Of a DNA stretch of 64,000 bases, positions 21,663 to 64,000 are shown one piece after another (within the stretch, counting starts at the first letter, position 1; each line of letters opens with the position of its first letter). Source of the stretch: Schmidtea polychroa (Eukaryota). The DNA is taken from NCBI GenBank assembly GCA_044892525.1, contig CM097885.1, positions 16,246,001-16,310,000 of the forward strand. Direction: 5' to 3'. The translations under genes and the position numbers were made by a program. A model generated the notes under the pieces. That model was given only the letters and a program-made list of their open reading frames with translations, did no database searches and was not told the DNA's origin.

Positions 21663-22595
21663 ATCACATCTGAGGTTAGTTTTTTTTTCAACATAAAATA
21701 ATATTAAAAATTTGAAAATAATATTGAAAATAGTGTGGGTATCTTATATTTATAAAGTACTTGTATATTTTATTTTATTTATTTTATTTTATTTTATTTT
21801 TTTATTAATTAATTATTTTTTAAACATAAATATGAAAAAAAAAATATTGAAACGGGTGATGGTGGCGAACCGGTAATTATCGCCACCTGTCTTTCGAACA
21901 CCCCCGGATCGATCCCGGTAATGTGCACATTTATTTCTCAGTTGTTTTCGGACCTCTTTCGGATTCGCTTTCGAATTCATTTGTACTTTCGAGCAGCACA
22001 CTTAAAACGCCGTTGAAATCGACTTCGTGAGCGAGAAGCGAATAATAAGGCGTGCTGCTATTATCGGATTGATTCTGATGTATGAGTCTGGCCAGCTTGT
22101 ATATTGGAAGAGATTTGATAAACGAAAGAGGTTGATAAATAAAAAAAAAAATTATCCGGATCAAAAAAAAACTGTTGAGGGGACAGTGAAAAAAAAAAAA
22201 AAAAATACCACTGTCCCCTCAGAGCAGTTTTACTATTTTCATAAAATTTTTTATTTTTAAAACTTACAAAACCTTAAGGTGATCAGGCGACCTAGATCAT
22301 TATGAATTAGGTAATCTGATATTCTTATAACATTAAATCCTTAAGACCAAGTAGTGAGGAATCTATGCACCCCGTTACCTTTTCTCGGAATTACTAATCT
22401 ATAAATACATCTATTCCGAACTTTTTTACTTTTAAGGGAAGAAATTAAGGGTTAATGGCAATAGGGGACAAAGTTTAAAAGTTAAAAAAAGTGAAGAATA
22501 TGGGGTAAAAAAGCATATAAATGTGGAAAATATGGGTCAATAGCGCTGTTTTTTTTTAGGGTGGGGGTGCTGGGGTGCATAGATTCCTCACTACT
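21663..22595 (-). mobile_element. Left-arm remnant of Polinton B
   Basis: Reverse complement of 58786-59718; ends ..CCTCACTACT followed by CCCCTC. Confidence 0.9.
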
Positions 22596-27824: not shown

Positions 27825-27860
27825 TATTATTATTATTATTATTAATATTATTATTATTAC

Positions 27861-27927
<67 letters not shown>

Positions 27928-28260: not shown

Positions 28261-28547
28261 AGTAGTGGGGATATATCCCTAACGACCACAGGCCTCCCAC
28301 TGTTTTCATGTTTTATGGCCATTTTACCCCCAAAAACGTACAAAAAAACACTAAAAACCCTTAAAAACCTATATCTTTTAATTTCTTTATTCTGAAGACA
28401 TTTTGGTTTCAAAATAAAGACTTAAAAAAAAACAACAAAAATATTAAAAAAACAACAAAAATATTAATAAAACGGGGAAAAAAATACTGATAAAACTATG
28501 AAAAACGTTTGTCGGCTTGCGGTCGTTAGGGATATAAACACACTACT
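28261..28547 (+). repeat. Left terminal module of A, itself bounded by inverted repeats
   Basis: Ends in gcggtcgttagggatataaacacactact, an inverted copy of the terminus. Confidence 0.9.
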
Positions 28548-28740
28548 TGAGGATGTCAACTAGCAAGTTGCTATTTGACTAATTTATAATTTTATAAATC
28601 TTAATCTTGAAGAATAAAAAATTTTATGAAAATAGTAAAACTGCTCTGAGAGGACAGTGGTATTTTTTTTTTTTTTTTTTTTTCACTGTCCTCTCAACAG
28701 TTTTTTTTGATCCGGATCATTTTTTTTTTTTTTTATTTCA

Positions 28741-29038
28741 ACCTCTTTCGTTTATCAAATCTCTTCCAATATACAAGCTGGCCAGACTTATATATCAGAA
28801 TCAATTCGATAATAGCAGCACACCTTATTATTCGCTTCTCGCTCACGAAGTCGATTTCATCGGCGTTTTAAGTGTGCTGCTCGAAAGTACAAATGAATTC
28901 GAAAGCGAATCCGAAAGAGGTCCGAAAACAACCAAGAAATAAATGTGCACATTATAGAATCGATCCGGGGGTGTTCGAAAGACTGGTGGCGATAATTACC
29001 GGTTCGCCACCATCACCCGTTTCAATATTTTTTTTTTC
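28741..29038 (+). ncRNA. Candidate structured non-coding RNA or ssDNA element in Polinton A left arm
   Basis: Several long-range helices, GAAA loops, terminal T-run; conserved in B at 59249-59546; strand is inferred. Confidence 0.45.
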
Positions 29039-29170
29039 ATATTTATGTTTAAAAATTAATTAATTAATAAATAAATAAATAAAATAAACAAGATTTATTT
29101 CCTAAGATACCCACACCATTTTTCAATATTATTTTCAAATTTTTAATATTATTTTATGTTGAAAAAAAAA

Positions 29171-29245
29171 CTAACCTCAGACGTGATTTGAACCGCTAGC
29201 ATTTGAACCACTGTGCCAGTCTATTCCCACTGCGCTATCGGAGTT
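29171..29245 (-). ncRNA. tRNA-like Pol III unit A1
   Basis: Minus strand A-box TAGCGCAGTGG, B-box GGTTCAAATC, T9 terminator. Confidence 0.65.
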
Positions 29246-29414
29246 CGGATTTTTGTCATTTTTTAAATTTTTAATTAATAAAAAAATAAAATAAAATAAA
29301 TAAAATAAAATAAAAATAAATAAAAATAAATAAAATAAAATATTAATCTAAGATACCCACACCATTTTCAATATTATTTTCAAATTTTTAATATTATTTT
29401 ATGTTAAAAAAAAA

Positions 29415-29489
29415 CTAACCGTAGTTAGGATTTGAACCGCTATCCATTTGAACCACTGTGCCAGTCTAGCCCACTGCGCTATCGGAGTT
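29415..29489 (-). ncRNA. tRNA-like Pol III unit A2 (tandem duplicate of A1)
   Basis: A-box TAGCGCAGTGG, B-box GGTTCAAATCC, T9 terminator. Confidence 0.65.
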
Positions 29490-29525
29490 CGGATTTTTAT
29501 CATTTTTTAAATTTTTATTATAAAA

Positions 29526-30821
29526 ATGAATAATATAAATCTTAAAATTCAAGAAAAAAATAAATTAAATCTTGATTATAATAAAGAATTTACTCATGAA
29601 ATTAAAAAAAATGATATTTTAAAAATATCCCCAACTTCAGGATCTATTGCAAACTTAAATCGTAGGGGTGATATAGTTTTTCAATCTCTTCAAACATCAA
29701 ACCCAATAGATATTTGTAATGCCAAATTATATTATAAAATCGAATTAGAAATTGAAGCAAACAAAGATATAACCCTAGAAAATAATTTCTTTCCAAATTT
29801 ATTCTCCAACATGAGATTAAAACTAGGATCATCAGAAATTGAAACTGTTTTGCACCCAGGAGTATATTCTACAATGTTAAATTTTATTTTAACTGGTTGT
29901 GATTATAAAAACGAATATGGTGAATTAACAGGTTGGATTCCTGATGTTAATAAAGGAGATTTAGATAAAGATGGTTTAGATGTAAACCATGGTTACTATA
30001 AAAGAGCTGAACTTTATAAGTTGAAAAAATTTGAAGGTTATTTTGAATTAAAACACTTGTTCGGATTCCTTCAAAACTATAACCGGGTGCTCCATAATGT
30101 TTTTATAGAATTAGTTTGTAATAGAGTAGAAGGTGATAAAAGATTGTTCTATGGAGCTGCAGATACAAAAGCTAAATTAAAATTATCAACACTTGAATTG
30201 CATATACCTGAATGGACATTAAATCCACATTCTGAGATTAAACTCCTTGAAAGATTAAATTCCAACAAATCTATAAATGTAAATTATTTAAATAGAATCT
30301 GTAGTGAATTTAGTATGACAGAGGGTTCAACATATTCTATAAAGGTAGCAAATTTAGCATACCGACCAAGATATATCTTGATTGGATTCAAAGAAGTAGA
30401 TTCATCTTTCCAAAAAAATAACAATCTATTTATTCAAAAGATTGGAGATGATAATTTAAAAACAATCCAAATTCAATTAAATAGTTCTTATTATCCAATA
30501 AATAGAATGGAATTTAATATTGAAAATAATGAAAACATATTCCCATATCTAAATTATATTGAAACATGTTATTATTTCAAAGTTGAACCGCAATTAAGTT
30601 TAGAAGATTTCAAAAATTTATATTCTATATTTTGTATAAATGTATCAGACCAAGATGATCGCCTAGCTATAAATAATGTTGATGTTACACTTCATGTAAC
30701 AAAGGATTCTAATTTTAAAGCTAAAGTATATACATTAATATTAGAAGAAAAGAAAATAGAAATGAAATTATATGGTGGAAAGATTTCAATTATTGAAAAT
30801 GTTAAGGGAGATTCTTCATAA
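29526..30821 (+). CDS. Major capsid protein (double jelly-roll, Polinton PY)
   Basis: 431 aa; LENNFFPNLFSNMRLKLG..IE, RPRYILIGF, IFCINVS motifs; genomic context. Confidence 0.85.
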   Translation: MNNINLKIQEKNKLNLDYNKEFTHEIKKNDILKISPTSGSIANLNRRGDIVFQSLQTSNPIDICNAKLYYKIELEIEANKDITLENNFFPNLFSNMRLKLGSSEIETVLHPGVYSTMLNFILTGCDYKNEYGELTGWIPDVNKGDLDKDGLDVNHGYYKRAELYKLKKFEGYFELKHLFGFLQNYNRVLHNVFIELVCNRVEGDKRLFYGAADTKAKLKLSTLELHIPEWTLNPHSEIKLLERLNSNKSINVNYLNRICSEFSMTEGSTYSIKVANLAYRPRYILIGFKEVDSSFQKNNNLFIQKIGDDNLKTIQIQLNSSYYPINRMEFNIENNENIFPYLNYIETCYYFKVEPQLSLEDFKNLYSIFCINVSDQDDRLAINNVDVTLHVTKDSNFKAKVYTLILEEKKIEMKLYGGKISIIENVKGDSS

Positions 30822-30850
30822 GTAGATTCCCCCATAAAAAAACTTTTAAA

Positions 30851-32263
30851 ATGAGTAAATATTGGACATGTGAAAGTTGTAATTGTCAAGTTACAAGACA
30901 TCACAAAGCAAGTCATCTCAAAACTAAAAAACATACGAGAGTTGATATTACAGGAGGCGACCTACAATCTTCAAAAACAACATCTACAATATTAAAACCT
31001 TTTACTACAGAAAAATATCCAGGTGAAAGACATTTATTCCGTCACAATTATACTGGGCCAGGAACAAGATTAGATATTAGATTAGATGAAAATAATAATC
31101 CTAAACAAGGAGAAGAACCAATAAATAGAATTGATCAAGCAGCTTTAAAACATGACATTGCTTACAACTCTGAAGATCTTAGAGATAGACATGTTGCTGA
31201 TGTGAATTTAATACATGATTTAAATAATATACAAAATCCATCAAGCAAGGAAAAGATTCAAAGAGCTCTAGTTAAATTAGCAATGAAAGGTAAGATTTTC
31301 ATAGGCTTAGGACACAGTCCGATCACCATGGGTGCAAGATTTCCTAGGAAAGCAAAAGATGTTGCTAATAAAAAGATTATCGAACAAGCAGAGATTGAAA
31401 GATCCCTCGAGAGTACAGCTAAGACTAGTTTACAAACCCCAACAGAATCAGAAATAAAATATGCTAATGAATTACACCATGAATTTAGAAAAAATAAAAA
31501 ATATTTAAAAGTTCAAGTACATGAAAAAGATCAAACATGGTCTGCAGATTTAGTCTTTATGCCAACCAAATCATCAGACCCTGAAAAATATAAAATAATT
31601 TTAACAGTAATAGATTTATATACAAGATTTGCTTTTGCAAGGTGTTTAGAAAATAAAACAGGATATTCTATTACAGAAGCATTTGAAAATATATTTGAAG
31701 AACATCAAAGAATTCCAAAATATTTATGGTGTGATAAAGGAACAGAATTTTATAACAAAGTTTTTACAAAGTTTTTAAATGAAAATGATATTAAATTATA
31801 TTCAACAGAAAACGAAGGAAAAGCAGTCGTAGTTGAAAGATTAAATAGAACATTAAAAAATAAAATGTGGAAATATTTTACTGCTATTGGAAAACAAAAA
31901 TGGAACAATGAATTGTTACAAAAGATTGTAAATGAATATAATAATGATGTACATAGTTCTATAAAATCAACACCTTTAAATGCTTCCATGAAGCCTGAAA
32001 CCATTAAAGTGGTAAATATTGAAAATGATGTTATTGTTGATACAACCCCTATAAAACCAAAGTTTAAAATTGGTGACCGAGTAAGAATATTTAAATATAA
32101 AAATAAATTTGAAAAAGGATTCACAGCAAAATGGACAAATGAAATTTTTATTATAAATAAAATACATTATACAACTCCAATAACATATAGCATCATTGAT
32201 TTAAATAATGAAAAAATATTAGGTAGATTTTATAATAATGAACTACAGAAAACAGATTTTTAA
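30851..32263 (+). CDS. Zn finger + parvovirus-type PLA2 domain fused to a retroviral-like DDE integrase
   Basis: CESC..HLKTKKH; NYTGPG..DQAALKHDIAY..RHVAD; WSADL, WCDKGTEF, VERLNRTLK. Confidence 0.92.
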   Translation: MSKYWTCESCNCQVTRHHKASHLKTKKHTRVDITGGDLQSSKTTSTILKPFTTEKYPGERHLFRHNYTGPGTRLDIRLDENNNPKQGEEPINRIDQAALKHDIAYNSEDLRDRHVADVNLIHDLNNIQNPSSKEKIQRALVKLAMKGKIFIGLGHSPITMGARFPRKAKDVANKKIIEQAEIERSLESTAKTSLQTPTESEIKYANELHHEFRKNKKYLKVQVHEKDQTWSADLVFMPTKSSDPEKYKIILTVIDLYTRFAFARCLENKTGYSITEAFENIFEEHQRIPKYLWCDKGTEFYNKVFTKFLNENDIKLYSTENEGKAVVVERLNRTLKNKMWKYFTAIGKQKWNNELLQKIVNEYNNDVHSSIKSTPLNASMKPETIKVVNIENDVIVDTTPIKPKFKIGDRVRIFKYKNKFEKGFTAKWTNEIFIINKIHYTTPITYSIIDLNNEKILGRFYNNELQKTDF

Positions 32264-32274
32264 GTCGACAAGCC

Positions 32275-33054
32275 CTAAAACAAACTTTTCCATATTTCAG
32301 CTTCTTCTCTATCCAAATAAATATAATTATATTTTTCTTTCCAATGATTATCAACAAACATATCAAACATATTCTTATCAGGTTCAACATTTGAAAATAA
32401 ATCATTATAAATCATATTCTTATCACGCTTGTCTAATTTAAAAAATATAAAACAATTAGAATTATTTCTTATAGAGTTTTTATCTAAAGCATAATATGTT
32501 TGAGATATATAAATAACATTACAATTATTATGTCGACCTCGTGTAAAGTAACTCTTTTGAATCTCTTGATTTTTCATATTAACAACATCATCAAATATAA
32601 CTAGATTCTTTTTATCTTTAGGAAGTAAATCACAATGTAAAACATCTTCAGGTTTATTAGAGAATAAGATCTGGATTCCATCCCCTATATAATCATTTTT
32701 ATTACTAATATCTGATTCTAAAATCTTTTCCTTGTACCAATCAACCATATCACAAGGATGAAAAACCTCTTCGGGATATGTATGTTGATTTTTAAAAATA
32801 TCAATTATAGCTTTTTTAGTTAATTTATTTTCAAATCCACATTTCAAAAGTTGTAATTCCGGTTGGTTAATGGTTGTAGAATAAAAGATTAAATTATTAT
32901 AATCCAAAAATCCATCTTCTAATAACATTCTCATAAGAAGAACATTCTTTCCACATCCAGAAGATCCAATAATTAAGCATCTAAAATTATCAGGAAATAC
33001 TTTAATATTAAATTTAGATTTATGTCTATTTAAAATTGGTTTCCAAGTATCCAT
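32275..33054 (-). CDS. FtsK/A32-like DNA packaging ATPase
   Basis: Walker A GSSGCGKN, Walker B VIFDD, RGRHNN. Confidence 0.93.
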   Translation of the reverse strand: MDTWKPILNRHKSKFNIKVFPDNFRCLIIGSSGCGKNVLLMRMLLEDGFLDYNNLIFYSTTINQPELQLLKCGFENKLTKKAIIDIFKNQHTYPEEVFHPCDMVDWYKEKILESDISNKNDYIGDGIQILFSNKPEDVLHCDLLPKDKKNLVIFDDVVNMKNQEIQKSYFTRGRHNNCNVIYISQTYYALDKNSIRNNSNCFIFFKLDKRDKNMIYNDLFSNVEPDKNMFDMFVDNHWKEKYNYIYLDREEAEIWKSLF

Positions 33055-33070
33055 TTTTATTTATTATAAA

Positions 33071-33586
33071 ATGACAACACAAAACCCTACAGAGGAATCT
33101 TTGCAAGAATTAATAAATTCAAATAAAAATAAATCAGTAGTAATCTCTGGTAAAAAATATTTTATTGGAAAACATGTAAAAGAACAAGTTGAAGAAAAAC
33201 TAAAGGAAGGAGGGATTCTTCCTCTGGCGGCTTTAATACCTGCAATCATTGCCGGACTATCAGGTGCTGCTGGAATAGCTGGAGGAATTGCAACTACAGT
33301 TCAAAAAGCTAAAGAATCTCAAAAGACAGACCTAGAAAAAGAAAAACTACAAACTGAAATCGAGAAAATGAAGGGAGGGAAAGGTCTTTATCTTGATCCT
33401 TATAAAGGTCGTGGTTTAAATGATTTTTTAAAAAATCAAATTTCTACATCTGAATCTTTATCTTCAAAAGATAAAGATGATTTAAAAAAAATATGTAAAT
33501 CTTTAAAAAATGGATGTCTTTGTAAAATTAAAAATGGTAAAGGTTTATACTTGAAACCCTTTCCAACGGATCCTTTACCAAAATGA
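33071..33586 (+). CDS. Putative virion core or membrane-active protein with adenovirus pX-like segment
   Basis: GGILPLAALIPAIIAG and repeated GKGLYLxP. Confidence 0.6.
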   Translation: MTTQNPTEESLQELINSNKNKSVVISGKKYFIGKHVKEQVEEKLKEGGILPLAALIPAIIAGLSGAAGIAGGIATTVQKAKESQKTDLEKEKLQTEIEKMKGGKGLYLDPYKGRGLNDFLKNQISTSESLSSKDKDDLKKICKSLKNGCLCKIKNGKGLYLKPFPTDPLPK

Positions 33587-33608
33587 TACCATTTTTAATA
33601 CCATTAAA

Positions 33609-34406
33609 ATGGTATATGAAGAAAGATTAGCACTTTTAAAAGAATTACAATCAGAACAAGATAAATATAATAAAAAAGATACAACTCAACACGCTGAATC
33701 TATAATATTAAATGAGGTAATCCAACAACAACAAGGACCAACAATTAAAGCCATAAAAGAGTTAGAAGTTTTAAAATTTAAAGAGTTGGAAGATAAACAA
33801 GATTTAAAAGAATTACCATGGTTGGAAGATTTAAATATAAAACCTCTTATACTTGATCCTAAAATTAATGTGAGTTTAAGTAAAACAATTAAACCTACAT
33901 TTAATATTAATGTTGAAGGATATCAAATAATAACAATTAATAAACATGACTTTCTGTTATATTTATATTCAGAAAATAAATCACGTATTCATTCACAAAA
34001 TGTTTATAATACTAAACACCTAGATTTTGAATTTACAGATGATTTTTATGGATTAGTTTGTGGATATCCCTCAGAGAATGTTGATCTTCTAGAAATTAAA
34101 AAATATTTAAATTTAATAGAATTAGTACATGGTAGTGCTAAAGCAAAACATATTCAAGATTTAAAGAAATATTTAAATAAAAATGAAAGGGGTTATATTG
34201 TCACAGAAGGAGAGGGCCAGGGTCAGGGCCAGGGAAAGGGTAAGGAGATAAACCCAATCAATCTTTTTATTGAATTAAGAAAACTATTAGCAGCTAAAAA
34301 AGCAGGACATAATAATTTAGATTCTGATATTTTAAAGATTTCTAAAGAATTATTAAAACAAGGAATAATTTCAAAAGATAAATTTAATAAATATACGAAG
34401 TTATAA
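33609..34406 (+). CDS. Polinton protein of unknown function
   Basis: 265-aa intact ORF, GxG repeat, C-terminal LLAAKKAGHNN..ELLKQGII. Confidence 0.7.
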   Translation: MVYEERLALLKELQSEQDKYNKKDTTQHAESIILNEVIQQQQGPTIKAIKELEVLKFKELEDKQDLKELPWLEDLNIKPLILDPKINVSLSKTIKPTFNINVEGYQIITINKHDFLLYLYSENKSRIHSQNVYNTKHLDFEFTDDFYGLVCGYPSENVDLLEIKKYLNLIELVHGSAKAKHIQDLKKYLNKNERGYIVTEGEGQGQGQGKGKEINPINLFIELRKLLAAKKAGHNNLDSDILKISKELLKQGIISKDKFNKYTKL

Positions 34407-34428
34407 ATACGAAGTTATAAAATATAAA

Positions 34429-34860
34429 ATGACTCCTTCAATATTAGATTTTTTAAAAACATTTGGAATAAATACAAAAACAAATTTTGATTTAAAAGAT
34501 TATGCAGATTATTTAAATTTAAAAATAAAAATATTAATGAATGATGAATTGTCGAGTCTGAAAGAAGACACTCCAAAGAATATCATTATAAATTATCAAA
34601 ATTCAAATGAAAAAGGATCTCATTGGGTTTTTATATATAATAAATCTATATACTTTGATTCTTTTGGGATTAAACCCACTAAAGAAGTTGAAGACTATCT
34701 CTCGGACTACACTTTTAATTCATTACAAGTTCAACCTAATAATACTAAAATATGTGGTATTTTAAGCTTATATGTTTTGTATAGATTGAATAAATCCAAA
34801 GGAGAAGGTTTCACTTCCTTAATCCAAGAAATTTATAATGATTTAAAATCTATACTATGA
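34429..34860 (+). CDS. Adenain-like cysteine protease
   Basis: GSHWV, YFDSFG, QVQ..ICG (His-Asp-Cys triad). Confidence 0.92.
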   Translation: MTPSILDFLKTFGINTKTNFDLKDYADYLNLKIKILMNDELSSLKEDTPKNIIINYQNSNEKGSHWVFIYNKSIYFDSFGIKPTKEVEDYLSDYTFNSLQVQPNNTKICGILSLYVLYRLNKSKGEGFTSLIQEIYNDLKSIL

Positions 34861-35627
34861 AAATGGAGCTTCGCAACCTTCCGGAAGATAATTTAAAAAA
34901 AATGGTAAACATAATGTCAGATAAATATTCAAGAACTTTATCTATAAATTCAAAAGAATCAGACTTTACTATAAACTTTCAAGATTCAATTAAATTAGAT
35001 CAAAATTTAAATTATGAATTAGGACTATTATGGTTTTGTGCTTATAATACTATTTTTAATATAACTAAAGATAATAACATATTTTATTATATAAGCCCAA
35101 AATCTACAGATAAGATTATAATAACAATCGAACCCGGAGCTTATGAGATAAAAGATTTAAATAATATACTTTCTAAAAAAACAAATGGAGTCATTAAAAT
35201 TAAAATGGATTTACCAACTTCAAAATGTATAATGACTTTAGAGAATATAGGAATTCATTTTCAAAATAATAGTTTCTTTAGAACAATTTTAGGATTTACA
35301 CGAAACCATTATATCACACCTGTAGTTGAGAATATAACATCAGAAAATATTATAAAAATAATAAATACAAACACAATAAATATTCATTGCGATTGTATAA
35401 CAGGTTCTTATAATAATGGTAAACAAACAAATGTTTTATATTCCTTTCCCTCAAACACAGTTCCTATGGGATATAAAATAGTTGAAAGAATGAATCCTCC
35501 AAATTATTTACCTTTATGTAGAAAATATATAATGGATATTAATTTTAAAATTCTTAATCAAGAAGGAGAATTGATTGATTTTAATGGAGAAGAGATTTCA
35601 ATGTATTTACATTTGAAACAGGTTTGA
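34857..35627 (+). CDS. Minor capsid protein (penton, PX)
   Basis: IEPGAYEI, NIHCDCITGSY.NG...VLYSF, IDFNGE. Confidence 0.85.
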   Translation: MKMELRNLPEDNLKKMVNIMSDKYSRTLSINSKESDFTINFQDSIKLDQNLNYELGLLWFCAYNTIFNITKDNNIFYYISPKSTDKIIITIEPGAYEIKDLNNILSKKTNGVIKIKMDLPTSKCIMTLENIGIHFQNNSFFRTILGFTRNHYITPVVENITSENIIKIINTNTINIHCDCITGSYNNGKQTNVLYSFPSNTVPMGYKIVERMNPPNYLPLCRKYIMDINFKILNQEGELIDFNGEEISMYLHLKQV

Positions 35628-35664
35628 ATACGAAGTTCCACATGTCATTTTAAATTATTAATAA

Positions 35665-36675
35665 ATGAGTTCTTATATTCCATGTAATAGAGGTGGTGGA
35701 ACAATAAAAACAGGGTTTAATACAGAAGAAATATTAACTTTAACAGAAAATAAATATATTAATGAAAGAGGTGATTCAATGAAGGGTGATTTAATTTTAA
35801 ATGGACACAAGATAAAAGAATTATCTTTTCCAACTGATGAAGCTGATGCAGTTAATAAGAAATATGTTGATGGTGTTAAAAATTATACTGATTTAACAAC
35901 AACAAGAATTGAAAGTTCATTAACAACAAAAATGGATTCAATGGAATCAAAGCTTAATAATATCGAACAACGATTTAATGATAAATTTGACAAGTTACAA
36001 AGTCTGTTAACTGAACAAGTTGTAAAGTTAAATACTAGCATATTAAATTCTAAAGATAAACAAATTATGAATACTAAATTTAATACAATATATAATATAA
36101 TAAATGAGATGATTACATCATTTAATAAAAGAATTTCAAATTTAGAGTCTCATGGAACACACATTAACACCACACATAGTATTAGAAAAAGAGCTGCTGA
36201 ATTAGAACAGAATAAAACATTATTACCCCATACATATAAACATTTTATAGAACCAAGTTTAATAACAACAAACAGTAAAGAATGGGGTGTTTTTATGGTT
36301 GTAAAGATTATTGATCCTTATTTCTTTTTGTTTGATGATGATAATGAAAGAATGAAATGGTTTGTGAAATGTGATTATAATAGTAAGCTTGAAAAGGGTG
36401 ATGTTATAATGACTAGTTATGATTTACCACACGGAGATTGGTATGTTAATACTCATTCACATGGACTACATAAAGTTAAAAGTAAGAATATTATTTTTAA
36501 AAGCACACTTGTACAATATATAGGTTTAATATTTTATGAAAAAAAGGTTGATGTTGATGAAGTTCGTAAAGCATTGAGAGAATTGTATAAAGATATCCTC
36601 TCAACAAGAGTTTCTTTTGATATCCGAGTATTGGTGACAGATGGTGCTCAGAAGAATAAAGTCTTATTTTTTTAA
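35665..36675 (+). CDS. Putative fibre/spike protein
   Basis: GDLILNGHKI..PTDEADAVNKKYVD tail-fibre-like motif, coiled coil, C-terminal globular part. Confidence 0.55.
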   Translation: MSSYIPCNRGGGTIKTGFNTEEILTLTENKYINERGDSMKGDLILNGHKIKELSFPTDEADAVNKKYVDGVKNYTDLTTTRIESSLTTKMDSMESKLNNIEQRFNDKFDKLQSLLTEQVVKLNTSILNSKDKQIMNTKFNTIYNIINEMITSFNKRISNLESHGTHINTTHSIRKRAAELEQNKTLLPHTYKHFIEPSLITTNSKEWGVFMVVKIIDPYFFLFDDDNERMKWFVKCDYNSKLEKGDVIMTSYDLPHGDWYVNTHSHGLHKVKSKNIIFKSTLVQYIGLIFYEKKVDVDEVRKALRELYKDILSTRVSFDIRVLVTDGAQKNKVLFF

Positions 36676-36683
36676 TTATTAAA

Positions 36684-37305
36684 ATGGACAAAGTCCAAAA
36701 GATGGAAGAAGTAAGAGAAGAAAAAAATTTATCCAGAGCTCCCTCCAGAATTGAGATCATCAGGATATTATTTTTCCAAGGCCTCGGCTCCCACAGAACT
36801 TGAAATTATGAGAGTAAAAGAATTTAAATCAGAAACCTTACATTTACAAGATTTATTAAAGCATTATAAAAAAATTAAAAATAGATGGAATAAAGGGAAT
36901 ACAGTTTTAAAAGTTATAGGTTATTCTTTAGGATTTGCATCTGCAATATTAACAGTTATTTTACCCATAACTTTACCAGTTGTTACTCTTGCACCTGTAA
37001 TACTTGGAAGTATTTCTGTAGCTGATGGTTTCTTAACTGAAATAGTTTCATTATCTTATACTTCTAAAAAGAAAAGTTTATATAGAGAAGTTTGTTTATC
37101 AATAGAATTAGGAATCTCTAAATTATTTTTATTTCAATTAAAAGCTTTGGAAGATGGAATCTTAACTGATGATGAAATAATGAAATCAAATCAAATAATA
37201 CAAGATATTAAAAATAATATTAATAGATTAAAAAGTGCTAATGTTATAAGTAATGAATATTCTAAAAAAATTAAACGAGAGAAGTGGCTAAAGAATCATA
37301 CATAA
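36684..37305 (+). CDS. Hydrophobic-hairpin Polinton protein (gasderminX-like); likely start 36684 with a 1-nt frameshift in the A7 run at 36721
   Basis: Two hydrophobic segments and KALEDGILTDDE; removing one A joins MDKVQK.. to IYPELP.. Confidence 0.6.
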
Positions 37306-37378
37306 AAAAATTTTTTGCCCTTCAAAAGGTTGATGTTGTCACTCTTAAATTAATTGTTGACATTTTTAAAAAAAAAAA

Positions 37379-40300
37379 TCATTTGATAGAATCTGATGTT
37401 AACTTTTCGAAATTAGTTTTTAGAACCTCTTTATGATCTTTAAATTCTTTATCACTTAGACCTTTTATATATTCAGGATCAGTATTAAAATATTTAAGTT
37501 CTAAAGATATAGGATTAAAAACTTGAGAATATAAAGGTCTGTCAATTCTTGGGGGATAAATGATCTCAACTCTATAAATATCAAGATCAGTAAGATTTAA
37601 ATCATAGACTTCATTTATTTTATCAAGACTTTTTATTATAGGGATTAAATCATTTCCTATAGGTAGTGTTGTTTTCATATCAGACAAGATGAATCTTTTG
37701 TCATCATAATTTGATAATGATACTTTTTGGGATTCTATCAAGTAGATATCATGCTTTTCACTTTTAAGTTGATGTACTTCATCAATTTTATCTTTATGAC
37801 CTGGATTCAATGTGTCTTTATAATCTTGATGAGAAAGTTTCCTGGCTACACATCTCTGAATTCCTTTACATCTGTTATCCTTTACAGGTTTCTCGGCTTC
37901 CAGTCCTCCCGGGAATATAGGATATCTATGTGTAATGCTTTCTTCTGTATCTGGGGTTTTAAATATAAATGTATGCTCTTCAAATTTAGGTTTTGTAAAT
38001 GTTTCGTATGAATATTGTTTAGCACGAATAAATATTCCATTTTCTATTGGGGTATTTGGTTTTTCATCTTTAAATGAAAATAACTCTCCAGATGAATTTA
38101 TTAAATTTGAAAGTATAGGATTTTCAGATATATCCCTTTCAAGGTCCTCAGTTCTTATTGTTAAAAACATTGAATCTGTATCCATTGCATGCATTGCTAT
38201 ATTAGGACCATATATAGGATGTAAGACATTATAATATGTTTCATACATTTGCAATTTTGAAAGTTCTAAAATTGCAAAGCCTATAAATATTGGTTTATTA
38301 TATGTTTTCTCAAAATTCTGTAGTTCTACTGCAGTAAGATTTTCAGAAAATACTTGTGCGTTTTTAAATGTAGGCTTTCCTAGCATACGATTATAACGGG
38401 CTACATCTTTTTCACTATTTGTCAAGAGTTCTATATTAGTATACTTGTCCACATTCTCCATTGTTTTCCCAAAGACTGAATTGTTTAAAAGTTTATAACC
38501 ATTGTCTTTTAAAAGGTTACCTTCTCTTTTTGCAATGTTTCTACAACGGATGTTCTCCTCGATGAAAGTCTTCATGAATGCTGCTTGTTTAAATCTTATG
38601 ACACTATGAACTTTTTTTAATATCATTCCTTGTGAAAGATAAAACTGTAGGAGTCTATAGTGACAAAGATAATAAGTTCGATCTGTTTGATCACAAAGAA
38701 GTTTCACTGTTGGAGGTTTATCTTGTGAGATTTGCCAGGATGAAAGTTCTTGGACATTAATCTTTCTTCTTATAGGAGCTAGAGGGAAATGTCTTGTTCC
38801 TGATTTTATATCACCTGGGTAATCGAGGTCACATTCTATAAAGTATCCTATTGGAGAATCTTTAGGGGTTGAACGTATTTCTTTTATAAGGTCTTTTAGG
38901 GTGGAACTCTGTATGGATTCTTCTTCTTCTTCTTCAGAGGAGGAGTATATCTCACGAAAGTCACTCATTGGTAAATACTGAGTCATAATTCCTGAATATA
39001 AAGCTGTTGCATCTATATAAAGTATAAATAGAGGATTTTTCATTCCTTCTAATACTTCTTTTAGTTCCTCATCGTTAAGTTTTATATATGGATCATCAGA
39101 GAGCATTCGGCTAGTAGTTATTGCATTTCTAGCTTTTATTTCTCTATTCCCCATTACTGAGGATACTCCTCCTCTAATGTTTGTTTTAATTAAATTAAAC
39201 ATGTCTTGCTCGGTTAAAAGATCTATAATTTTATCAGATTCTGGAAGATCTGAAGTCCAAATGGTATATAACATAGTATCCCAAGCTAAAGAAGGAGCTG
39301 TTATATAATTATAAGGTTTTAGGACAAAAGACTTTGTAAACTCTTCAAAGCAATCTGCCAGAATGTAAACATCTAAGGATAAGTACATACTTGTATATTC
39401 TCCTAAAGTTTTACAGTCGAACAGGTGAAACATTTTCTGAGCTCGGGAATATTCAGTGTCTGTAATCCCAGATTTTGAAAGTAGTGAATAAAAGTACTCT
39501 TTCTCTGGTAATTTTGTTTCCTTATATTTTTCAAAGGAGTCAACGTAGTCATAGGGATATATTCCCTTCGCCAAGCATGCGGAATATTCTTCTGCTGGTA
39601 TATTATTTTTTTCCAAGAACTCCCGAGTGATTTTAAAATCTTCTAGCTTTAATGTTTTTGCTATGCCATCTAAAGACATTTGGAGAAAGTTTAAGGAATC
39701 TATAAATTTTAATTTCCCATATTCAAGTGATTTATATTTTTCCTTTGTTAAGCCAATAACCTTGAAAGAGTTTTTGGCATTTGCTGCTAGATGCTTTATA
39801 AATAGATGTACGTCATAACCAAAAAGATTATGAAATATAACTGGTACAAATTTAGGAGTATGACAATTAAGATTGCAATCTCTATGGGCTGCTCCTCGAT
39901 AATTATTTTCACTTTTTAAATGATCGTGATCTATAACCTTATCATTAGTTGGGATCTCTTGTTTGCACATCCAACAGTTGAATGTATTTTTATATTCTTC
40001 TAATTGTTGATCTGAAATATTTTGAGGATACTTTGTTTTTAATGCTTCAAATATTTCATGTTCTAGATCATTTATACTTGTAGTAAAATGATCCAAGACA
40101 TCTTCTGAAGTTCCTTGAAATGCATATTCTCTAGATTCTATGACTTCGGGATAATTACTTTTAAATAATAATTTATAAGCAGATGGTAATTGTTTAGTTT
40201 TTTTAACACTATTGGGTTTATTATTTTTTCTTAGAAAGGCCTTCAACCTTGTTGGTTTCTCCTTCTGTTTAGAGGCTTTCCATTCATCCATGAGTTTATA

Positions 40301-41722
40301 TTTTTCTATTATTTTTAAATATTGCTTGACTAGATCTTGTTTATGATTTATAGATTCAAAGTCTCCGTAAATTACTCCTAATGTTTGTAATAAATTTGAA
40401 AAGTTTTTAAAATACATCCTGGGATCTGTAGGCATTCTAATTAAAGCTGGTGAATCCTTTTCACAAAATCTTGCATGCTTAATCATGGAGTTTTCAGTTG
40501 TTGAATAATGAAGACATCTTTTACACATTCCTCCTCCACTAGTTGGATTCTCTGGAGATGTAAAAGCTTGAAAGTTTTTTATTAAAATATAATGTTGATT
40601 ATTTTCATGTTCCAAGATTAAAAGATATATCTCCCTCGTGCTATCGCTTCCCTGTATTTCATAATCAGAAATATAAATTGGAATAATATCTCTGCATCCA
40701 CGTCCCCATCCTTTAACATGTTCATAAATATTAAGTTTAAGATTATTTAGTTTTTCAAATTCTGGAATGTCTTCTAGTTTCATTGGATGCATGAATCCTC
40801 CTGGGAATATTAATTCATTTTCATATTCTTTGTATTTTGAAACTCTTTGGGGGTTTTCGGTTTGAGGATGTAAATGTGCAAGTATTGACCACATGAAACC
40901 TTTGTTATCCTTATTCTGCACATTTATAACATTTTTAGATTTAAAGGGTGTAGGAATATAGGATTTAGGATTAGGTGGTAATCCCCTCCAATAATCAATC
41001 ACTAAAGATTGGAAGGAATGAAATACTAAGTTTGAATCTCCTAATTCATTTTCAATCTCTTCTTGTTTTGCTTCGACTGCTTGAATTATTTCTTTGATGC
41101 TTTTATTAAATCCTCTAGTTGAAAATAAATATTTAAAAGGCATTGGGATTTCAACATCTAAAGGAATTGTGTCTTCTTGTCCTTGGCTTTGCGCTCTCCA
41201 ATATTTTGCTTTTATTGTGATTTTATATTTTATAACATTATACCTTGTCGGTTTATAATTTTTTAAAGCCTCACAGAAAGAATCTTTTATATTTTTTTTA
41301 TTTCTCTTTATATATTCTCCAGGGGTTGCAGGTCCATTAATTTTTAATTTAAATTCATCTATATGATTAAAATTATCCCAGTTGTATTTTTCTCTTTCAA
41401 CATGATCAGGTTCTCCTTCTGAATAACATTCCTCATCCTCGGGATTTTCTTTTATATGTTCTTTTAAATGTTTTAAATAGTAGAAATTTATTTTTGTTGA
41501 AAAGTTACAATGAGGGCATGTAAATACTTCTCTAAGTCTCCCGATACAATTTTCAAAATGTTTATTATATCCTGAATGTAGATATCTTCCTTTACATTTA
41601 GGACAGAGTTTTGAATTTGTGTCATTAAGATTATTTTCTTTTAGTAAGTGAGCCTTCGACTTACAGTGGGAAATTAATCCTGTTTTATTTTTAAAAACTT
41701 TATTGCAAATATTAGAGTTCAT
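37379..41722 (-). CDS. Protein-primed family B DNA polymerase with N-terminal Zn fingers and an endonuclease VII-like insert
   Basis: YGDFES, CWMC..DHDH..RGAAHRDCN, FHNLFGYD, KLLNNSVFGKTMEN, DTDS, YDDKR. Confidence 0.95.
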   Translation of the reverse strand: MNSNICNKVFKNKTGLISHCKSKAHLLKENNLNDTNSKLCPKCKGRYLHSGYNKHFENCIGRLREVFTCPHCNFSTKINFYYLKHLKEHIKENPEDEECYSEGEPDHVEREKYNWDNFNHIDEFKLKINGPATPGEYIKRNKKNIKDSFCEALKNYKPTRYNVIKYKITIKAKYWRAQSQGQEDTIPLDVEIPMPFKYLFSTRGFNKSIKEIIQAVEAKQEEIENELGDSNLVFHSFQSLVIDYWRGLPPNPKSYIPTPFKSKNVINVQNKDNKGFMWSILAHLHPQTENPQRVSKYKEYENELIFPGGFMHPMKLEDIPEFEKLNNLKLNIYEHVKGWGRGCRDIIPIYISDYEIQGSDSTREIYLLILEHENNQHYILIKNFQAFTSPENPTSGGGMCKRCLHYSTTENSMIKHARFCEKDSPALIRMPTDPRMYFKNFSNLLQTLGVIYGDFESINHKQDLVKQYLKIIEKYKLMDEWKASKQKEKPTRLKAFLRKNNKPNSVKKTKQLPSAYKLLFKSNYPEVIESREYAFQGTSEDVLDHFTTSINDLEHEIFEALKTKYPQNISDQQLEEYKNTFNCWMCKQEIPTNDKVIDHDHLKSENNYRGAAHRDCNLNCHTPKFVPVIFHNLFGYDVHLFIKHLAANAKNSFKVIGLTKEKYKSLEYGKLKFIDSLNFLQMSLDGIAKTLKLEDFKITREFLEKNNIPAEEYSACLAKGIYPYDYVDSFEKYKETKLPEKEYFYSLLSKSGITDTEYSRAQKMFHLFDCKTLGEYTSMYLSLDVYILADCFEEFTKSFVLKPYNYITAPSLAWDTMLYTIWTSDLPESDKIIDLLTEQDMFNLIKTNIRGGVSSVMGNREIKARNAITTSRMLSDDPYIKLNDEELKEVLEGMKNPLFILYIDATALYSGIMTQYLPMSDFREIYSSSEEEEEESIQSSTLKDLIKEIRSTPKDSPIGYFIECDLDYPGDIKSGTRHFPLAPIRRKINVQELSSWQISQDKPPTVKLLCDQTDRTYYLCHYRLLQFYLSQGMILKKVHSVIRFKQAAFMKTFIEENIRCRNIAKREGNLLKDNGYKLLNNSVFGKTMENVDKYTNIELLTNSEKDVARYNRMLGKPTFKNAQVFSENLTAVELQNFEKTYNKPIFIGFAILELSKLQMYETYYNVLHPIYGPNIAMHAMDTDSMFLTIRTEDLERDISENPILSNLINSSGELFSFKDEKPNTPIENGIFIRAKQYSYETFTKPKFEEHTFIFKTPDTEESITHRYPIFPGGLEAEKPVKDNRCKGIQRCVARKLSHQDYKDTLNPGHKDKIDEVHQLKSEKHDIYLIESQKVSLSNYDDKRFILSDMKTTLPIGNDLIPIIKSLDKINEVYDLNLTDLDIYRVEIIYPPRIDRPLYSQVFNPISLELKYFNTDPEYIKGLSDKEFKDHKEVLKTNFEKLTSDSIK

Positions 41723-41793
41723 TTTTAGAATAAATTTTTTTACTGGATCCTATGTTTTCTATTTTTCTATTTTTATTTTTCTATTTTTTTATT

Positions 41794-41899
41794 CACCAGT
41801 ATTGTATTCACCAAGACCTGGATTCACCAAGACCTGTAGCACCAAGACATGTAGCACCAAGACCTGTAGCACCAGTATTGTATTCACCAAGACCTATAG
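41794..41899. repeat. 15/16-bp tandem repeat (CACCAAGACCTGTAG) x7 upstream of pPolB
   Basis: Directly visible. Confidence 0.9.
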
Positions 41900-41907
41900 T
41901 TCCTCCG

Positions 41908-42150
41908 AGTAGTGGGGATATATCCCTCACGACCGCAGGCCGATATACGTTTTTCATAGCTTTATAGCCATTTTTCTCCGTTTTGTAGGCTTAAATCCAT
42001 ATTTTTTAAATTTTGCGAAATAGAGCAAAATAAAAAATGTGCGTTTTTAAGGGTTTTTAGTGTTTTTTTGTACGTTTTTTGGGGTAAAATAGCCATAAAA
42101 CATGAAAACAGTGGGAGGCCTGTGGTCGTGAGGGATATATCCCCACTACT
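41908..42150 (-). repeat. Right terminal module of A, itself bounded by inverted repeats
   Basis: agtagtggggatatatccctcacgacc at 41908 and its reverse complement ending at 42150. Confidence 0.92.
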
Positions 42151-58785: not shown

Positions 58786-59031
58786 AGTAGTGAGGAATCT
58801 ATGCACCCCAGCACCCCCACCCTAAAAAAAAACAGCGCTATTGACCCATATTTTCCACATTTATATGCTTTTTTACCCCATATTCTCCACTTTTTTTAAC
58901 TTTTAAACTTTGTCCCCTATTGCCATTAACCCTTAATTTCTTCCCTTAAAAGTAAAAAAGTTCGGAATAGATGTATTTATAGATTAGTAATTCCGAGAAA
59001 AGGTAACGGGGTGCATAGATTCCTCACTACT
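58786..59031 (+). repeat. 246-bp terminal module of B with perfect 24-bp inverted repeats
   Basis: AGTAGTGAGGAATCTATGCACCCC .. GGGGTGCATAGATTCCTCACTACT. Confidence 0.93.
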
Positions 59032-59701
59032 TGGTCTTAAGGATTTAATGTTATAAGAATATCAGATTACCTAATTCATAATGATCTAGGTCGCCTGATC
59101 ACCTTAAGGTTTTGTAAGTTTTAAAAATAAAAAATTTTATGAAAATAGTAAAACTGCTCTGAGGGGACAGTGGTATTTTTTTTTTTTTTTTTCACTGTCC
59201 CCTCAACAGTTTTTTTTTGATCCGGATAATTTTTTTTTTTATTTATCAACCTCTTTCGTTTATCAAATCTCTTCCAATATACAAGCTGGCCAGACTCATA
59301 CATCAGAATCAATCCGATAATAGCAGCACGCCTTATTATTCGCTTCTCGCTCACGAAGTCGATTTCAACGGCGTTTTAAGTGTGCTGCTCGAAAGTACAA
59401 ATGAATTCGAAAGCGAATCCGAAAGAGGTCCGAAAACAACTGAGAAATAAATGTGCACATTACCGGGATCGATCCGGGGGTGTTCGAAAGACAGGTGGCG
59501 ATAATTACCGGTTCGCCACCATCACCCGTTTCAATATTTTTTTTTTCATATTTATGTTTAAAAAATAATTAATTAATAAAAAAATAAAATAAAATAAAAT
59601 AAATAAAATAAAATATACAAGTACTTTATAAATATAAGATACCCACACTATTTTCAATATTATTTTCAAATTTTTAATATTATTTTATGTTGAAAAAAAA
59701 A

Positions 59702-59777
59702 CTAACCTCAGATGTGATTTGAACCACTATCCATTTGAACCACTGTGCCAGTCTATTCCCACTGCGCCATCAAGGTT
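59702..59777 (-). ncRNA. tRNA-like Pol III unit B1 (homologue of A1/A2)
   Basis: A-box TGGCGCAGTGG, B-box GGTTCAAATC, T9. Confidence 0.65.
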
Positions 59778-60023
59778 TGAATTTTTGTCATTTTTTAGAC
59801 TATAAATAATCGATTCAAGTTCTTTAACTCTTTCCTGTAATTGTTTCATTTTCTTCAATCTTATATCAGCAACATCTACAGCCTTCATATAAAAATGTCG
59901 ATACTTTTCATTATCTACCATCAACTCTTTGATGTATTCTAATGGTTCTTCTTCTCTTCTTTTCATTCTCTTATGTTTAACTTCATTCAATTCATTTCTC
60001 ATTCTTTCTTTTAACTCATCCAT
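59727..60023 (-). CDS. B-specific small coiled-coil protein
   Basis: 98 aa, AAAAATG start context like the other Polinton genes; absent from A. Confidence 0.6.
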   Translation of the reverse strand: MDELKERMRNELNEVKHKRMKRREEEPLEYIKELMVDNEKYRHFYMKAVDVADIRLKKMKQLQERVKELESIIYSLKNDKNSNLDGAVGIDWHSGSNG

Positions 60024-60188
60024 TTTTATAAATATTTTTTTATTGGATATATTAATTTTTGGTAGTTAAAACGTTTTTGATCTTAAATTTCCAAGAGTTG
60101 CCGTTGACCAATCACCTTAAAAATTTGTAAAAGTACTAAATCGAGTATGCTGATCAATATTTTGTTTAAAAAAAAATTTGAAAAAAAA

Positions 60189-60262
60189 TTGACCGAAATG
60201 GGATTTGAACCCATTGGTATTGGCAATGCAGTCGAGTGCTATTACCACTAAGCTAAACTCAA
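60189..60262 (-). ncRNA. tRNA-derived Pol III unit B2 (tRNA-Cys-like)
   Basis: TAGCTTAGTGGTAATAGCACTCGACTGCA..ATGGGTTCAAATCCCAT..T8; perfect T-arm, broken anticodon stem. Confidence 0.7.
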
Positions 60263-60422
60263 TATAAAATAAGTTGTTAATGTGTGACTATTTATTGATG
60301 AAATTAATAATTAATTATTCATTTTCTCGACAACTACCACTCAGATCGATCTGAAAATTTAAATATATACTAAAATCAGTACGCTGAATCAGATTCCGTT
60401 GAAAAAAAAATATCGAAAAAAA

Positions 60423-60498
60423 TTGACCAAAATTGAAAATTGAACCCGGTACTCCCGGTGATAAAATTGAAGCCTATTCCCACTCCGCTATAATGGCT
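60423..60498 (-). ncRNA. tRNA-like Pol III unit B3
   Basis: A-box TAGCGGAGTGG, weak B-box GGTTCAATTT, T-run. Confidence 0.5.
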
Positions 60499-60553
60499 TA
60501 CATAATATATTTAATTAATCCTATTGTGTGTGTGTAAATTTTAATATATAAAA

Positions 60554-61846
60554 ATGAATAACATAAATCTTAAAATTCAAGAAAAAAATAAATTAAATCT
60601 TGATTATAATAAAGAATTTACTCATGAAATTAAAAAAAATGATATTTTAAAAATCTCCCCAACTTCAGGATCTATTGCAAACTTAAATCGTAGGGGTGAT
60701 ATAGTTTTTCAATCTCTTCAAACATCAAACCCTATAGATATTTGTAATGCCAAATTATATTATAAAATCGAATTAGAAATTGAAGCAAACAAAGATATAA
60801 CCCTAGAAAATAATTTCTTTCCAAATTTATTCTCCAACATGAGATTAAAACTAGGATCATCAGAAATTGAAACTGTTTTGCATCCGGGAGTATATTCTAC
60901 AATGTTAAATTTTATTTTGACTGGTTGTGATTATAAAAACGAATATGGTGAATTAACAGGTTGGATTCCTGATGTTAATAAAGGAGATTTAGATAAAGAT
61001 GGTTTAGATGTAAACCATGGTTACCATAAAAGAGCTGAACTTTATAAATCTAAAAAATTTGAAGGTTATTTTGAATTAAAACACTTGTTTGGATTCCTTC
61101 AAAACTATAATCGTATACTTCATAATGTTTTTATAGAATTCATCTGTAATAGAGTAGAAGGTGATAAAAGATTGTTCTATGGAGCTGTAGATACAAAAGC
61201 TAAATTAAAATTATCAACACTTGAATTACATATACCTGAATGGACATTAAACCCACATTCTGAGATTAAACTCCTTGAAAGATTAAATTCCAACAAGTCT
61301 ATAAATGTAAATTATTTAAATAGAATCTGTAGTGAATTTAGTATGACAGAGGGTTCAACATATTCTATAAAGGTAGCAAATTTAGCATACCGACCAAGAT
61401 ATATCTTGATTGGATTCAAAGAAACAGATTCATCTTTCCAAAAAAATAACAATCTATTTATTCAAAAGATTGGAGATGATAATTTAAAAACAATACAAAT
61501 TCAATTAAATAGTTCTTATTATCCAATAAATAGAATGGAATTTAATATTGAAAATAATGAAAACATATTCCCATATCTAAATTATATTGAAACATGTTAT
61601 GATTTCAAAGTTGAACCGCAATTAAGTTTAGAAGATTTCAAAAATTTATATTCTATATTTTGTATAAATGTTTCAGACCAAGATGATCGCCTAGCCATAA
61701 ATAATGTTGATGTTACACTTCATGTAACAAAGGATTCTAATTTTAAAGCTAAAGTATATACATTAATATTAGAAGAAAAGAAAATAGAAATGAAATTATA
61801 TGGTGGAAAGATTTCAATAATCGAAAATGTTAGGGGAGATTCTTAA
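60554..61846 (+). CDS. Major capsid protein of Polinton B
   Basis: Near-identical to 29526-30821. Confidence 0.88.
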   Translation: MNNINLKIQEKNKLNLDYNKEFTHEIKKNDILKISPTSGSIANLNRRGDIVFQSLQTSNPIDICNAKLYYKIELEIEANKDITLENNFFPNLFSNMRLKLGSSEIETVLHPGVYSTMLNFILTGCDYKNEYGELTGWIPDVNKGDLDKDGLDVNHGYHKRAELYKSKKFEGYFELKHLFGFLQNYNRILHNVFIEFICNRVEGDKRLFYGAVDTKAKLKLSTLELHIPEWTLNPHSEIKLLERLNSNKSINVNYLNRICSEFSMTEGSTYSIKVANLAYRPRYILIGFKETDSSFQKNNNLFIQKIGDDNLKTIQIQLNSSYYPINRMEFNIENNENIFPYLNYIETCYDFKVEPQLSLEDFKNLYSIFCINVSDQDDRLAINNVDVTLHVTKDSNFKAKVYTLILEEKKIEMKLYGGKISIIENVRGDS

Positions 61847-61863
61847 TATTTTAACATTTTAAA

Positions 61864-63273: not shown

Positions 63274-63284
63274 GTCGACAAGCC

Positions 63285-64000
63285 CTAAAACAAACTTTTC
63301 CATATTTCAGCTTCTTCTCTATCCAAATAAATATAATTATATTTTTCTTTCCAATGATTATCAACAAACATATCAAACATATTCTTATCAGGTTCAACAT
63401 TTGAAAATAAATCATTATAAATCATATTCTTATCACGGCGATCTAATTTAAAAAATATAAAACAATTGGAATTATTTCTTATTGAATTTTTATCTAAAGC
63501 ATAATATGTTTGAGATATATAAATAACATTACAATTATTATGTCGACCTCGTGTAAAGTAACTCTTTTGAATCTCTTGATTTTTCATATTAACAACATCA
63601 TCAAATATAACTAGATTCTTTTTATCTTTAGGAAGTAAATCACAATGTAAAACATCTTCAGGTTTGTTAGAGAATAAAACTTGAATTGCCTCCTGCCCTT
63701 CTTCACAAATATAATCATTTTTATTACTAATATCTGATTCTAAAATCTTTTCCTTATACCAATCAACCATATCACAAGGTTGAAAAACTTCTTCAGGACA
63801 CCTATGTTGATTTTTAAAAATATCAATTATTGCTTTTTTAGTTAATTTATTTTCAAATCCACATTTCAAAAGTTGTAATTCTGGTTGATTTATGGTTGTA
63901 GAATAAAAGATTAAATTATTATAATCTAAAAAATCATCTTCAAGTAACATTCTCAAAACAAGTACATTCTTTCCACATCCAGAAGAACCAACAATTAATA
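63285..64000 (-). CDS. Packaging ATPase of Polinton B (5' partial)
   Basis: LIVGSSGCGKN at the window edge, VIFDD, RGRHNN. Confidence 0.92.
   Translation of the reverse strand, partial: LIVGSSGCGKNVLVLRMLLEDDFLDYNNLIFYSTTINQPELQLLKCGFENKLTKKAIIDIFKNQHRCPEEVFQPCDMVDWYKEKILESDISNKNDYICEEGQEAIQVLFSNKPEDVLHCDLLPKDKKNLVIFDDVVNMKNQEIQKSYFTRGRHNNCNVIYISQTYYALDKNSIRNNSNCFIFFKLDRRDKNMIYNDLFSNVEPDKNMFDMFVDNHWKEKYNYIYLDREEAEIWKSLF

Follow-up and report, generated by a model that had tools for sequence, protein, structure and literature searches.

The 64,000-nucleotide stretch of Schmidtea polychroa DNA analysed here (the window) raises the question of why a Polinton should carry, upstream of its capsid gene, a variable array of tRNA-like units with RNA polymerase III (Pol III) promoter elements, and whether such units matter as RNA genes or as DNA sites. 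The window is set in a genome of 781 Mb with four large contigs. Polintons, or Mavericks, are recognised by terminal inverted repeats (TIRs) ending in AGT repeats and by a 6-bp target duplication, and both were found here. Copy A encodes a double jelly-roll (DJR) capsid, a PLA2-integrase, an A32 ATPase, a pX-like protein and pPolB, and the Polinton gene set matched the Pfam families PF03175, PF00665, PF04665 and PF21738, covering pPolB, retroviral-type integrase, ATPase and DJR capsid. The terminal 330 bp of copy B are unrelated to the copy A terminus except for the first bases, and the sequence is common to both from position 59120. In both subfamilies the terminal 250-290 bp (28261-28547 and 58786-59031) form an internal inverted repeat, the two sequences being unrelated. 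The flanks of the insertions vary, and a target-site preference was rejected. A 24-mer of the capsid gene occurs 2,097 times genome-wide, and the five units first recognised sit in a Polinton family whose capsid genes number about 2,100.

Table 1. Positions of the Polinton copies, the Pol III-type units and associated features in the window.
Feature	Position	Strand	Remarks
Inverted duplicate of copy B left end	21663..22595	+	terminus, D and last bases of B1
Polinton copy A	28261..42150	.	13.9 kb; AGTAGT ends, 132-bp TIR, 6-bp target duplication
D, copy A	28621..29020	-	outboard of the A units
Pre-miRNA-like hairpin in D, copy A	28752..28818	-	-24.6 kcal/mol vs -7.3 on the other strand
A1, A-type unit	29162..29245	-	A box start 29237; two B copies, the proximal one imperfect and the distal one at 43 nt; T9
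A2, A-type unit	29406..29488	-	A box start 29481; tandem duplicate of A1, 244-245 bp spacing
Major capsid protein, double jelly-roll (PF21738), copy A	29526..30821	+	
Polinton copy B, left part	58786..64000	.	
D, copy B	59134..59530	-	
B1, A-type unit	59693..59777	-	A box start 59769
Segment common to rDNA intergenic spacer	60064..60542	-	holds B2 and B3 with spacers
B2, tRNA-Cys-like unit	60181..60262	-	A box start 60255
B3	60416..60498	-	A box start 60490; weaker B box
DJR capsid ORF, copy B	60554-61846		

The original prediction described five units that lie upstream of the capsid gene and diverge from it. All five were found in place on the minus strand, divergent from the DJR capsid ORF (Table 1); the predicted 5′ end of A2 and the capsid ATG are about 38 nt apart. 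A scan for an A box and a B box 40-48 nt apart, with a pattern drawn up after the units had been seen, returned exactly five matches in the window, namely A1, A2, B1, B2 and B3, whereas 100 block-wise dinucleotide shuffles averaged 0.09 matches and never gave more than 1. The predicted type-2 Pol III layout of A box, B box at tRNA-like spacing and oligo-T is present. The start-to-start distance between the boxes is 43-44 nt in all five units, as well as in the units D and E and the satellite unit described below, and equals that of host tRNA-Cys, tRNA-Lys and tRNA-Arg (43, 44 and 44 nt, respectively). T-runs of 8-9 were observed 23-24 nt past the B-box start in four units, and B3 has T4 runs within and just past its B box. 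The B box of B3 is the weaker one, as had been noted, and misses the equivalent of C61; it and the A box of D each depart from the type-2 anatomy at one position. The doubled B box reported for A1, A2 and B1 was also recovered, the distal copy being the one with tRNA spacing.

Three sequence types were distinguished among the short units, A1/A2/B1 (A-type), B2 and B3, the segments between the boxes scoring z 12-14 within a type and z ≤2.3 between types. As stated in the original prediction, none of them forms a full cloverleaf. Intact tRNA identity was ruled out, as ARAGORN finds 0 tRNA genes in the window and the best Rfam tRNA score (22.6 bits, on B2) is under the threshold of 29. A search of Rfam with all units and D gave no known family at E values up to 5. 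Four of the five short units do not fold better than shuffled sequences (z 0.51, -0.17, -0.14 and 0.05), and B2 is the only one that does (z -2.98). The inter-box segment of B2 resembles that of host tRNA-Cys (z 4.2, with 4 of 2000 shuffles as good), and the unit looks derived from tRNA-Cys; this likeness is moderate evidence, because Cys was picked for its likeness and three tRNAs only were compared. Among these three (Cys, Lys and Arg), no parent was found for the A-type, B3, D or E. Host tRNA genes occur in long tandem arrays (C1:269.25 Mb, C4:76.66 Mb, C140 and C333), and the tRNA-Cys motif has about 1,000 genome matches.

The A-type units were compared in 90 distinct rows. Of the 30 box columns, 2 carried common variants, against 18 of the 46 remaining columns of the unit and 5 of the 70 in the flanks (boxes versus rest of the unit, Fisher p 0.0015). 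None of the 11 G/C columns in the boxes was variable, against 9 of the 22 elsewhere in the unit, and the sole common A-box variant is the allowed A/G. At 99 loci with D, an A-type unit and a capsid, diversity was 0.038 for the boxes, 0.161 for the other unit columns and 0.030 for the flanks; at capsid third positions it was 0.075 (0.052-0.101), an interval that the A-type interval overlaps. The boxes are therefore spared relative to the rest of the unit, not relative to the AT-rich flanks, an outcome that the original prediction had named as a refutation. The proximal B copy, with its poor spacing, shows the same conservation as the distal one (0.020). The 5′ and 3′ ends recombine with no preserved pairing (23 combinations, 367 of 2000 shuffles as good), and a conserved terminal stem, searched for among the copies, was not found. 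As read from these alignments, the pattern is that of a promoter retained without its RNA structure. Yeast-type A-to-B-box spacing is given as 32-93 bp in the available text of PMC12409998; the proximal B copy is too near the A box for this, and its conservation would fit B-box binding as such.

A sixth unit, which the original prediction did not include, constitutes a fourth sequence type and was named D. In its tRNA-like head an A-box-like motif and a B box are spaced at 43 nt; the A box is off pattern at one position and the strict box scan omits it, and ARAGORN finds no cloverleaf in the head. The head is joined to a conserved, folded body of about 390 nt with a 25-bp hairpin, an A-run and a terminal hairpin, in this order. 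Candidate terminators are a T4 at about +90 and further T-runs at +374 to +400 (in copy A, T4/T6 at +378 to +397). The whole of D (about 400 nt) folds on the box strand with z -7.6 and -8.7 (0 of 100 shuffles as good), and the plus strand likewise folds better than shuffles (z -4.2); the mean minimum free energy of 20 copies is -135 on the box strand versus -109 on the other. The 25-bp hairpin, with a loop of 7 nt, reaches -24 kcal/mol on the box strand versus -2 to -7 on the other. In 101 distinct rows, the positions predicted to pair on either strand (n = 110) showed 14 common G.U and 3 common A.C; the pairs predicted on both strands (n = 56) showed 1 and 2, respectively, and no G.U excess. 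One pair switches between G-C and A-U (46/51 rows), and this single clean compensatory pair falls in the terminal hairpin, which folds equally on both strands. The diversity of D was 0.031 (0.020-0.044) versus 0.075 for capsid third positions at the same 99 loci, and D is retained across two subfamilies whose termini are unrelated and whose pPolB proteins share 79% identity. We consider it likely that D is transcribed as a structured RNA, the folded product probably being some 390 bases long.

Contigs were available from four runs, presumed to be RNA by a guess at their nature, which represent three samples from two studies. All four have contigs over D. In X1 and X2 the summed contig depth, which cannot rank the parts of the element, was 3,400-20,500 over 59201-59443 and, in the capsid bins, 220-940 (X1) and mostly 0-120 (X2); depth over D is for this reason a hint and not a measurement. 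The first T4 precedes the deep cover, which is what a read-through RNA would give. A weak local rise was seen on B1 (400 and 1,400 in X1 and X2), and B2 and B3 had little or no cover, which was not counted as evidence. The cover over D is thus a weak hint at its expression.

The layout of the array was determined at 134 loci with 122 distinct upstream regions, a non-random sample of the best matches of several queries. The common layouts were D-A-orf-B2-B3 (n = 34), D-A-A (n = 26 + 2), D-A-B2-B3 (n = 17) and D-A-orf (n = 9), and 15 loci were devoid of any unit. The short units numbered 0 to 4 per copy; D was present in 105 and B2/B3 in 56 of the 122 upstream regions. In many copies a small ORF-like insert (59800-60030, minus strand) lies between the A-type unit and B2. 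Genome-wide, 2,663 A-type, 3,022 D, 3,239 B2 (rDNA included) and 2,097 capsid matches were counted. Layouts and genome matches alike bear out that a variable array is linked to this Polinton. The tRNA-derived head, together with the SINE-like A-run after the D body, could suggest insertions of a dispersed host SINE. D lies outboard in 86 of the first 100 A-type matches listed, however, and D outboard or the capsid inboard in 93; of the 7 remaining matches listed, two adjoin D at the right end of a Polinton. Moreover, the counts of A-type, D and capsid correspond to one or two ends per element, position and orientation of the units are fixed, and the dispersed insertions independent of a carrier that mark a tRNA-derived SINE were not seen for the A-type unit, the matches of which stay tied to the Polinton. 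A SINE origin is thus very improbable.

All four unit types point toward the element terminus. Pairs of D facing outward, 11-17 kb apart, were found 17 times among 93 matches listed, and 13 of these enclose the capsid marker; many copies therefore carry D (and A) at both ends. In copy A, D and A are not at both ends. Two sister elements with both ends seen (capsids 92-93% and pPolB 53-73% identical) have no unit, so the cassette is family-specific and not every Polinton here needs it; of the four right-end stretches examined, two (L256 and L258) do not reach the ends. Other termini are found directly before the capsid in sister families with capsids 90-96% identical (L121, L125, L128, L129, L131, L137, L138, L144, L150 and L152); where pPolB was seen it is only 53-73% identical, a sign of modular exchange among Polintons. 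Searches with diverged capsids returned only this Polinton's capsid family, and no relatives of the units were found in the viral contigs searched. At 37 metagenome loci with capsids 19-52% identical no unit was detected, which is no evidence of absence because most of these loci are short, differ in gene order and miss their ends. In 17 stretches of C1 with other Polinton families (L195-L211), the ends of which possibly lie outside, only the satellite and units of the family described here were detected.

Several other features were observed in the window and among relatives. A 6.4-kb inverted duplication (21663-28017 and 53380-59718, 99.6% identical) contains a LINE and the left end of Polinton B. 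Broken fragments at about 18700-21000 look, by eye, like integrase and pX-like genes from a further element of the Maverick type, and several duplicated TRAF-like gene pieces (RING, zf-TRAF, MATH) lie at 8292-16246 and 44326-47784. A minus-strand hairpin at 52737-52797, near a 253-aa ORF (50445-51206), matches mir-753, which we take to be a planarian miRNA family, with 61.8 bits (gathering threshold 62). A hairpin in a metagenome relative of the Polinton (L157:5436-5515, minus strand) matches Rfam mir-754 with 48.6 bits (E 8e-7), below gathering. By this last match, miRNA families annotated in planarians may be linked to Polinton-like elements.

B2 and B3 also occur in the host rDNA. Five intergenic spacers, located by rRNA matches, were examined; four carry B3 (92-98.5% identical) and 2-3 tandem B2 modules antisense to the rRNA, and the fifth (L253) has neither. 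The B3 of copy B is 98.5% identical to a spacer copy, and the first B2 module of the spacer is 94-95% identical, with gaps, to the B2 of the Polinton. The DNA on either side of the common segment is unrelated. In the five spacers no other Polinton sequence was found, and the A-type and D gave only short AT-rich matches. The spacer array (L247:7296-8480 on C115; L249, L252 and L254), which is antisense to the rRNA, comprises the 2-3 B2 modules, one B3 and a further unit, E, with a box spacing of 44 nt, which is absent from the Polinton. All 40 of the places scored for E matched it at 100%, and most or all of them are on contigs that contain rDNA. A satellite shares with the spacer 175 nt of flank at 92.6%, present in no Polinton locus, and the module at about 84%. 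The substitution distance is 0.022 between Polinton and spacer, and 0.16 from either to the satellite copy.

The direction of transfer was addressed with a B2 tree of 29 rows, rooted on the satellite, in which 19 of 38 Polinton rows and 4 spacer rows were used. The spacer rows nest among the Polinton rows, three of them at 100/97 support, with the bootstrap unsettled, and this nesting fits a transfer from Polinton to spacer. So does the satellite, which is nearer the spacer in the flank than in the module, as if the module had been overwritten, and insertions of transposable elements into spacers are common according to the available text of PMC10946416. Concerted evolution with repeated capture, however, yields an identical tree. 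Because the satellite joins an older B2 to spacer flank, at a divergence of at least 7% compared with the 2.2% of the Polinton-spacer split, the module appears to be a long-time resident of the spacer, which makes capture by the Polinton the simpler reading; the spacer, furthermore, owns the extra unit E, and the five examined are free of all other Polinton sequence. An origin of the spacer B2/B3 in the Polinton is therefore rather unlikely, and we think that B2/B3 were probably captured from the rDNA spacer by the Polinton, with later exchange.

The reading that we prefer, to which we give about an even chance, is a composite Pol III cassette in which D would be a Pol III RNA gene akin to TMERs and VA RNAs, and the short units would serve as cis-acting TFIIIC/Pol III sites. 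TFIIIC would bind the A and B boxes and Pol III would transcribe outward, toward the terminus. D would yield a short RNA of about 90 nt ending at the T4 and, by read-through, a structured, TMER-like RNA of about 380-400 nt with a tRNA-like promoter head followed by hairpins; by analogy, this RNA would most likely be a small-RNA precursor or a decoy that counters RNA silencing by the host. The 75-nt units would matter mainly as DNA, as repeated TFIIIC/Pol III sites, and their RNA product would be incidental; B2 and B3 would most likely have been acquired from the spacer as ready-made extra units. That such sites hold open, or insulate, both the ends of the element and the capsid promoter at a distance of only 38-55 nt is a tentative proposal, to which we give slightly less than an even chance. 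The available texts describe tRNA genes and B-box sites as TFIIIC-dependent barriers (PMC12409998) and trypanosome snRNAs as receiving promoter help from divergent tRNA-like genes (PMC5814962); the cassette could possibly help the promoter of the divergent gene in a similar way.

The original prediction regarded the units as Polinton-encoded VA-RNA analogues. This fits the 75-nt units poorly, because they show no sign of a conserved RNA structure, their boxes are no better kept than the flanks and B2/B3 also reside in rDNA; they look more like bare promoters, and the other option of the original prediction, a TFIIIC-bound DNA element, would fit them better. The analogy to VA RNAs and TMERs holds instead for the neighbouring D. 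That all units, including the 75-nt ones, make functional small RNAs (VA-like decoys or precursors), with the A-type variability as RNA diversification, is unlikely. Each unit does have a promoter and a terminator, the non-box A-type columns are more diverse than capsid third positions and flanks, the depth on B1 rises, if weakly and in presumed RNA, and the tRNA-like part of a TMER is reportedly enough for function (available text of PMC8223928). Against this, only one of the five units folds better than its shuffles, A-type end pairing is freely reshuffled, B2/B3 are host spacer DNA and the copy number of short units varies down to zero. Equally unlikely, in our estimate, is that only D is functional, the A-type units being tRNA-derived passengers in decay, and B2/B3 having been captured from rDNA by accident and hitch-hiking with a successful subfamily. 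Such decay would agree with A-type boxes no better conserved than flanks, in a young family where conservation tells little, with B2/B3 in less than half of the sampled upstream regions and with sister elements devoid of all units; it agrees less with change inside A-type units that avoids the boxes, also at G/C columns, with a common A-box variant limited to the allowed A/G, with box spacing held at 43-44 and with units duplicated and copied to both ends. A more far-reaching form of the composite cassette, with an abundant TMER-like Pol III RNA whose hairpin would give rise to a small regulatory RNA, outward TFIIIC bracketing of the integrated element and module trade with the host rDNA spacer, is rather unlikely.

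Adenoviruses are relatives of Polintons and are thought to descend from that group; we know of no reason to expect a PKR target in a flatworm. Like the units, the adenovirus VA RNAs I and II have internal A and B boxes, an oligo-U end, a proposed tRNA origin and G.U-rich stems (available text of PMC7589676). They differ in that no match to the VA RNA covariance model RF00102 was found here at E up to 5, the short units have no three-domain fold (terminal, apical, central) and the cassette is terminal, whereas VA genes are internal. The TMERs of murine gammaherpesvirus 68 form a type-2 Pol III cluster in which hairpins follow a tRNA-like 5′ part, as the available text of PMC8223928 describes. 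This layout of tRNA-like head and pre-miRNA-like hairpin is seen in D, with a non-cloverleaf head, and is absent from the 75-nt units. Unlike TMERs, D has no Rfam match, is about 390 nt long and is carried by an endogenous Polinton. Short units resemble tDNA insulators and extra-TFIIIC (ETC) sites, which are repeated, lie at domain borders and keep boxes but not RNA structure (PMC12409998, available text); ETC sites have B boxes only, whereas the short units, whose likeness is one of sequence, keep the A box, tRNA spacing and terminator and are carried by a mobile element. The Bocavirus BocaSR, which Pol III transcribes from a small DNA virus at its non-coding end, acts at the terminal origin (available text of PMC11194592), and a comparable role of the cassette is possible by analogy; BocaSR is a single 140-nt RNA of a parvovirus without its own polymerase, with no homology shown to the cassette. 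Cassandra and Ajax, with 5S promoters, are mobile elements carrying rDNA-derived Pol III promoters (PMC10946416, a text that does not mention Polinton or Maverick). Here the promoters are of type 2, probably come from the 45S spacer and reside in a Polinton. Protist PLVs carry tRNA genes and other Rfam matches (PMC12220804, available text), and the units described here are not intact tRNAs. By these comparisons, the cassette is a member of none of the TMERs, VA RNAs, tDNA/ETC barriers or Cassandra elements. In the literature covered (main texts, few subscription papers) we found neither a Pol III cassette in an animal Polinton, in line with the suggestion that none had been described, nor a tRNA-like unit array in a planarian rDNA spacer.

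Polintons have been treated as protein-coding elements, and a Pol III RNA gene in one of them would extend the strategy of VA RNAs, EBERs and TMERs to their group. It could also help to explain some 2,000 copies in a host with a strong small-RNA defence. The spacer array is a host feature worth a study of its own, and D offers a concrete, high-copy target for RNA work in a laboratory flatworm.
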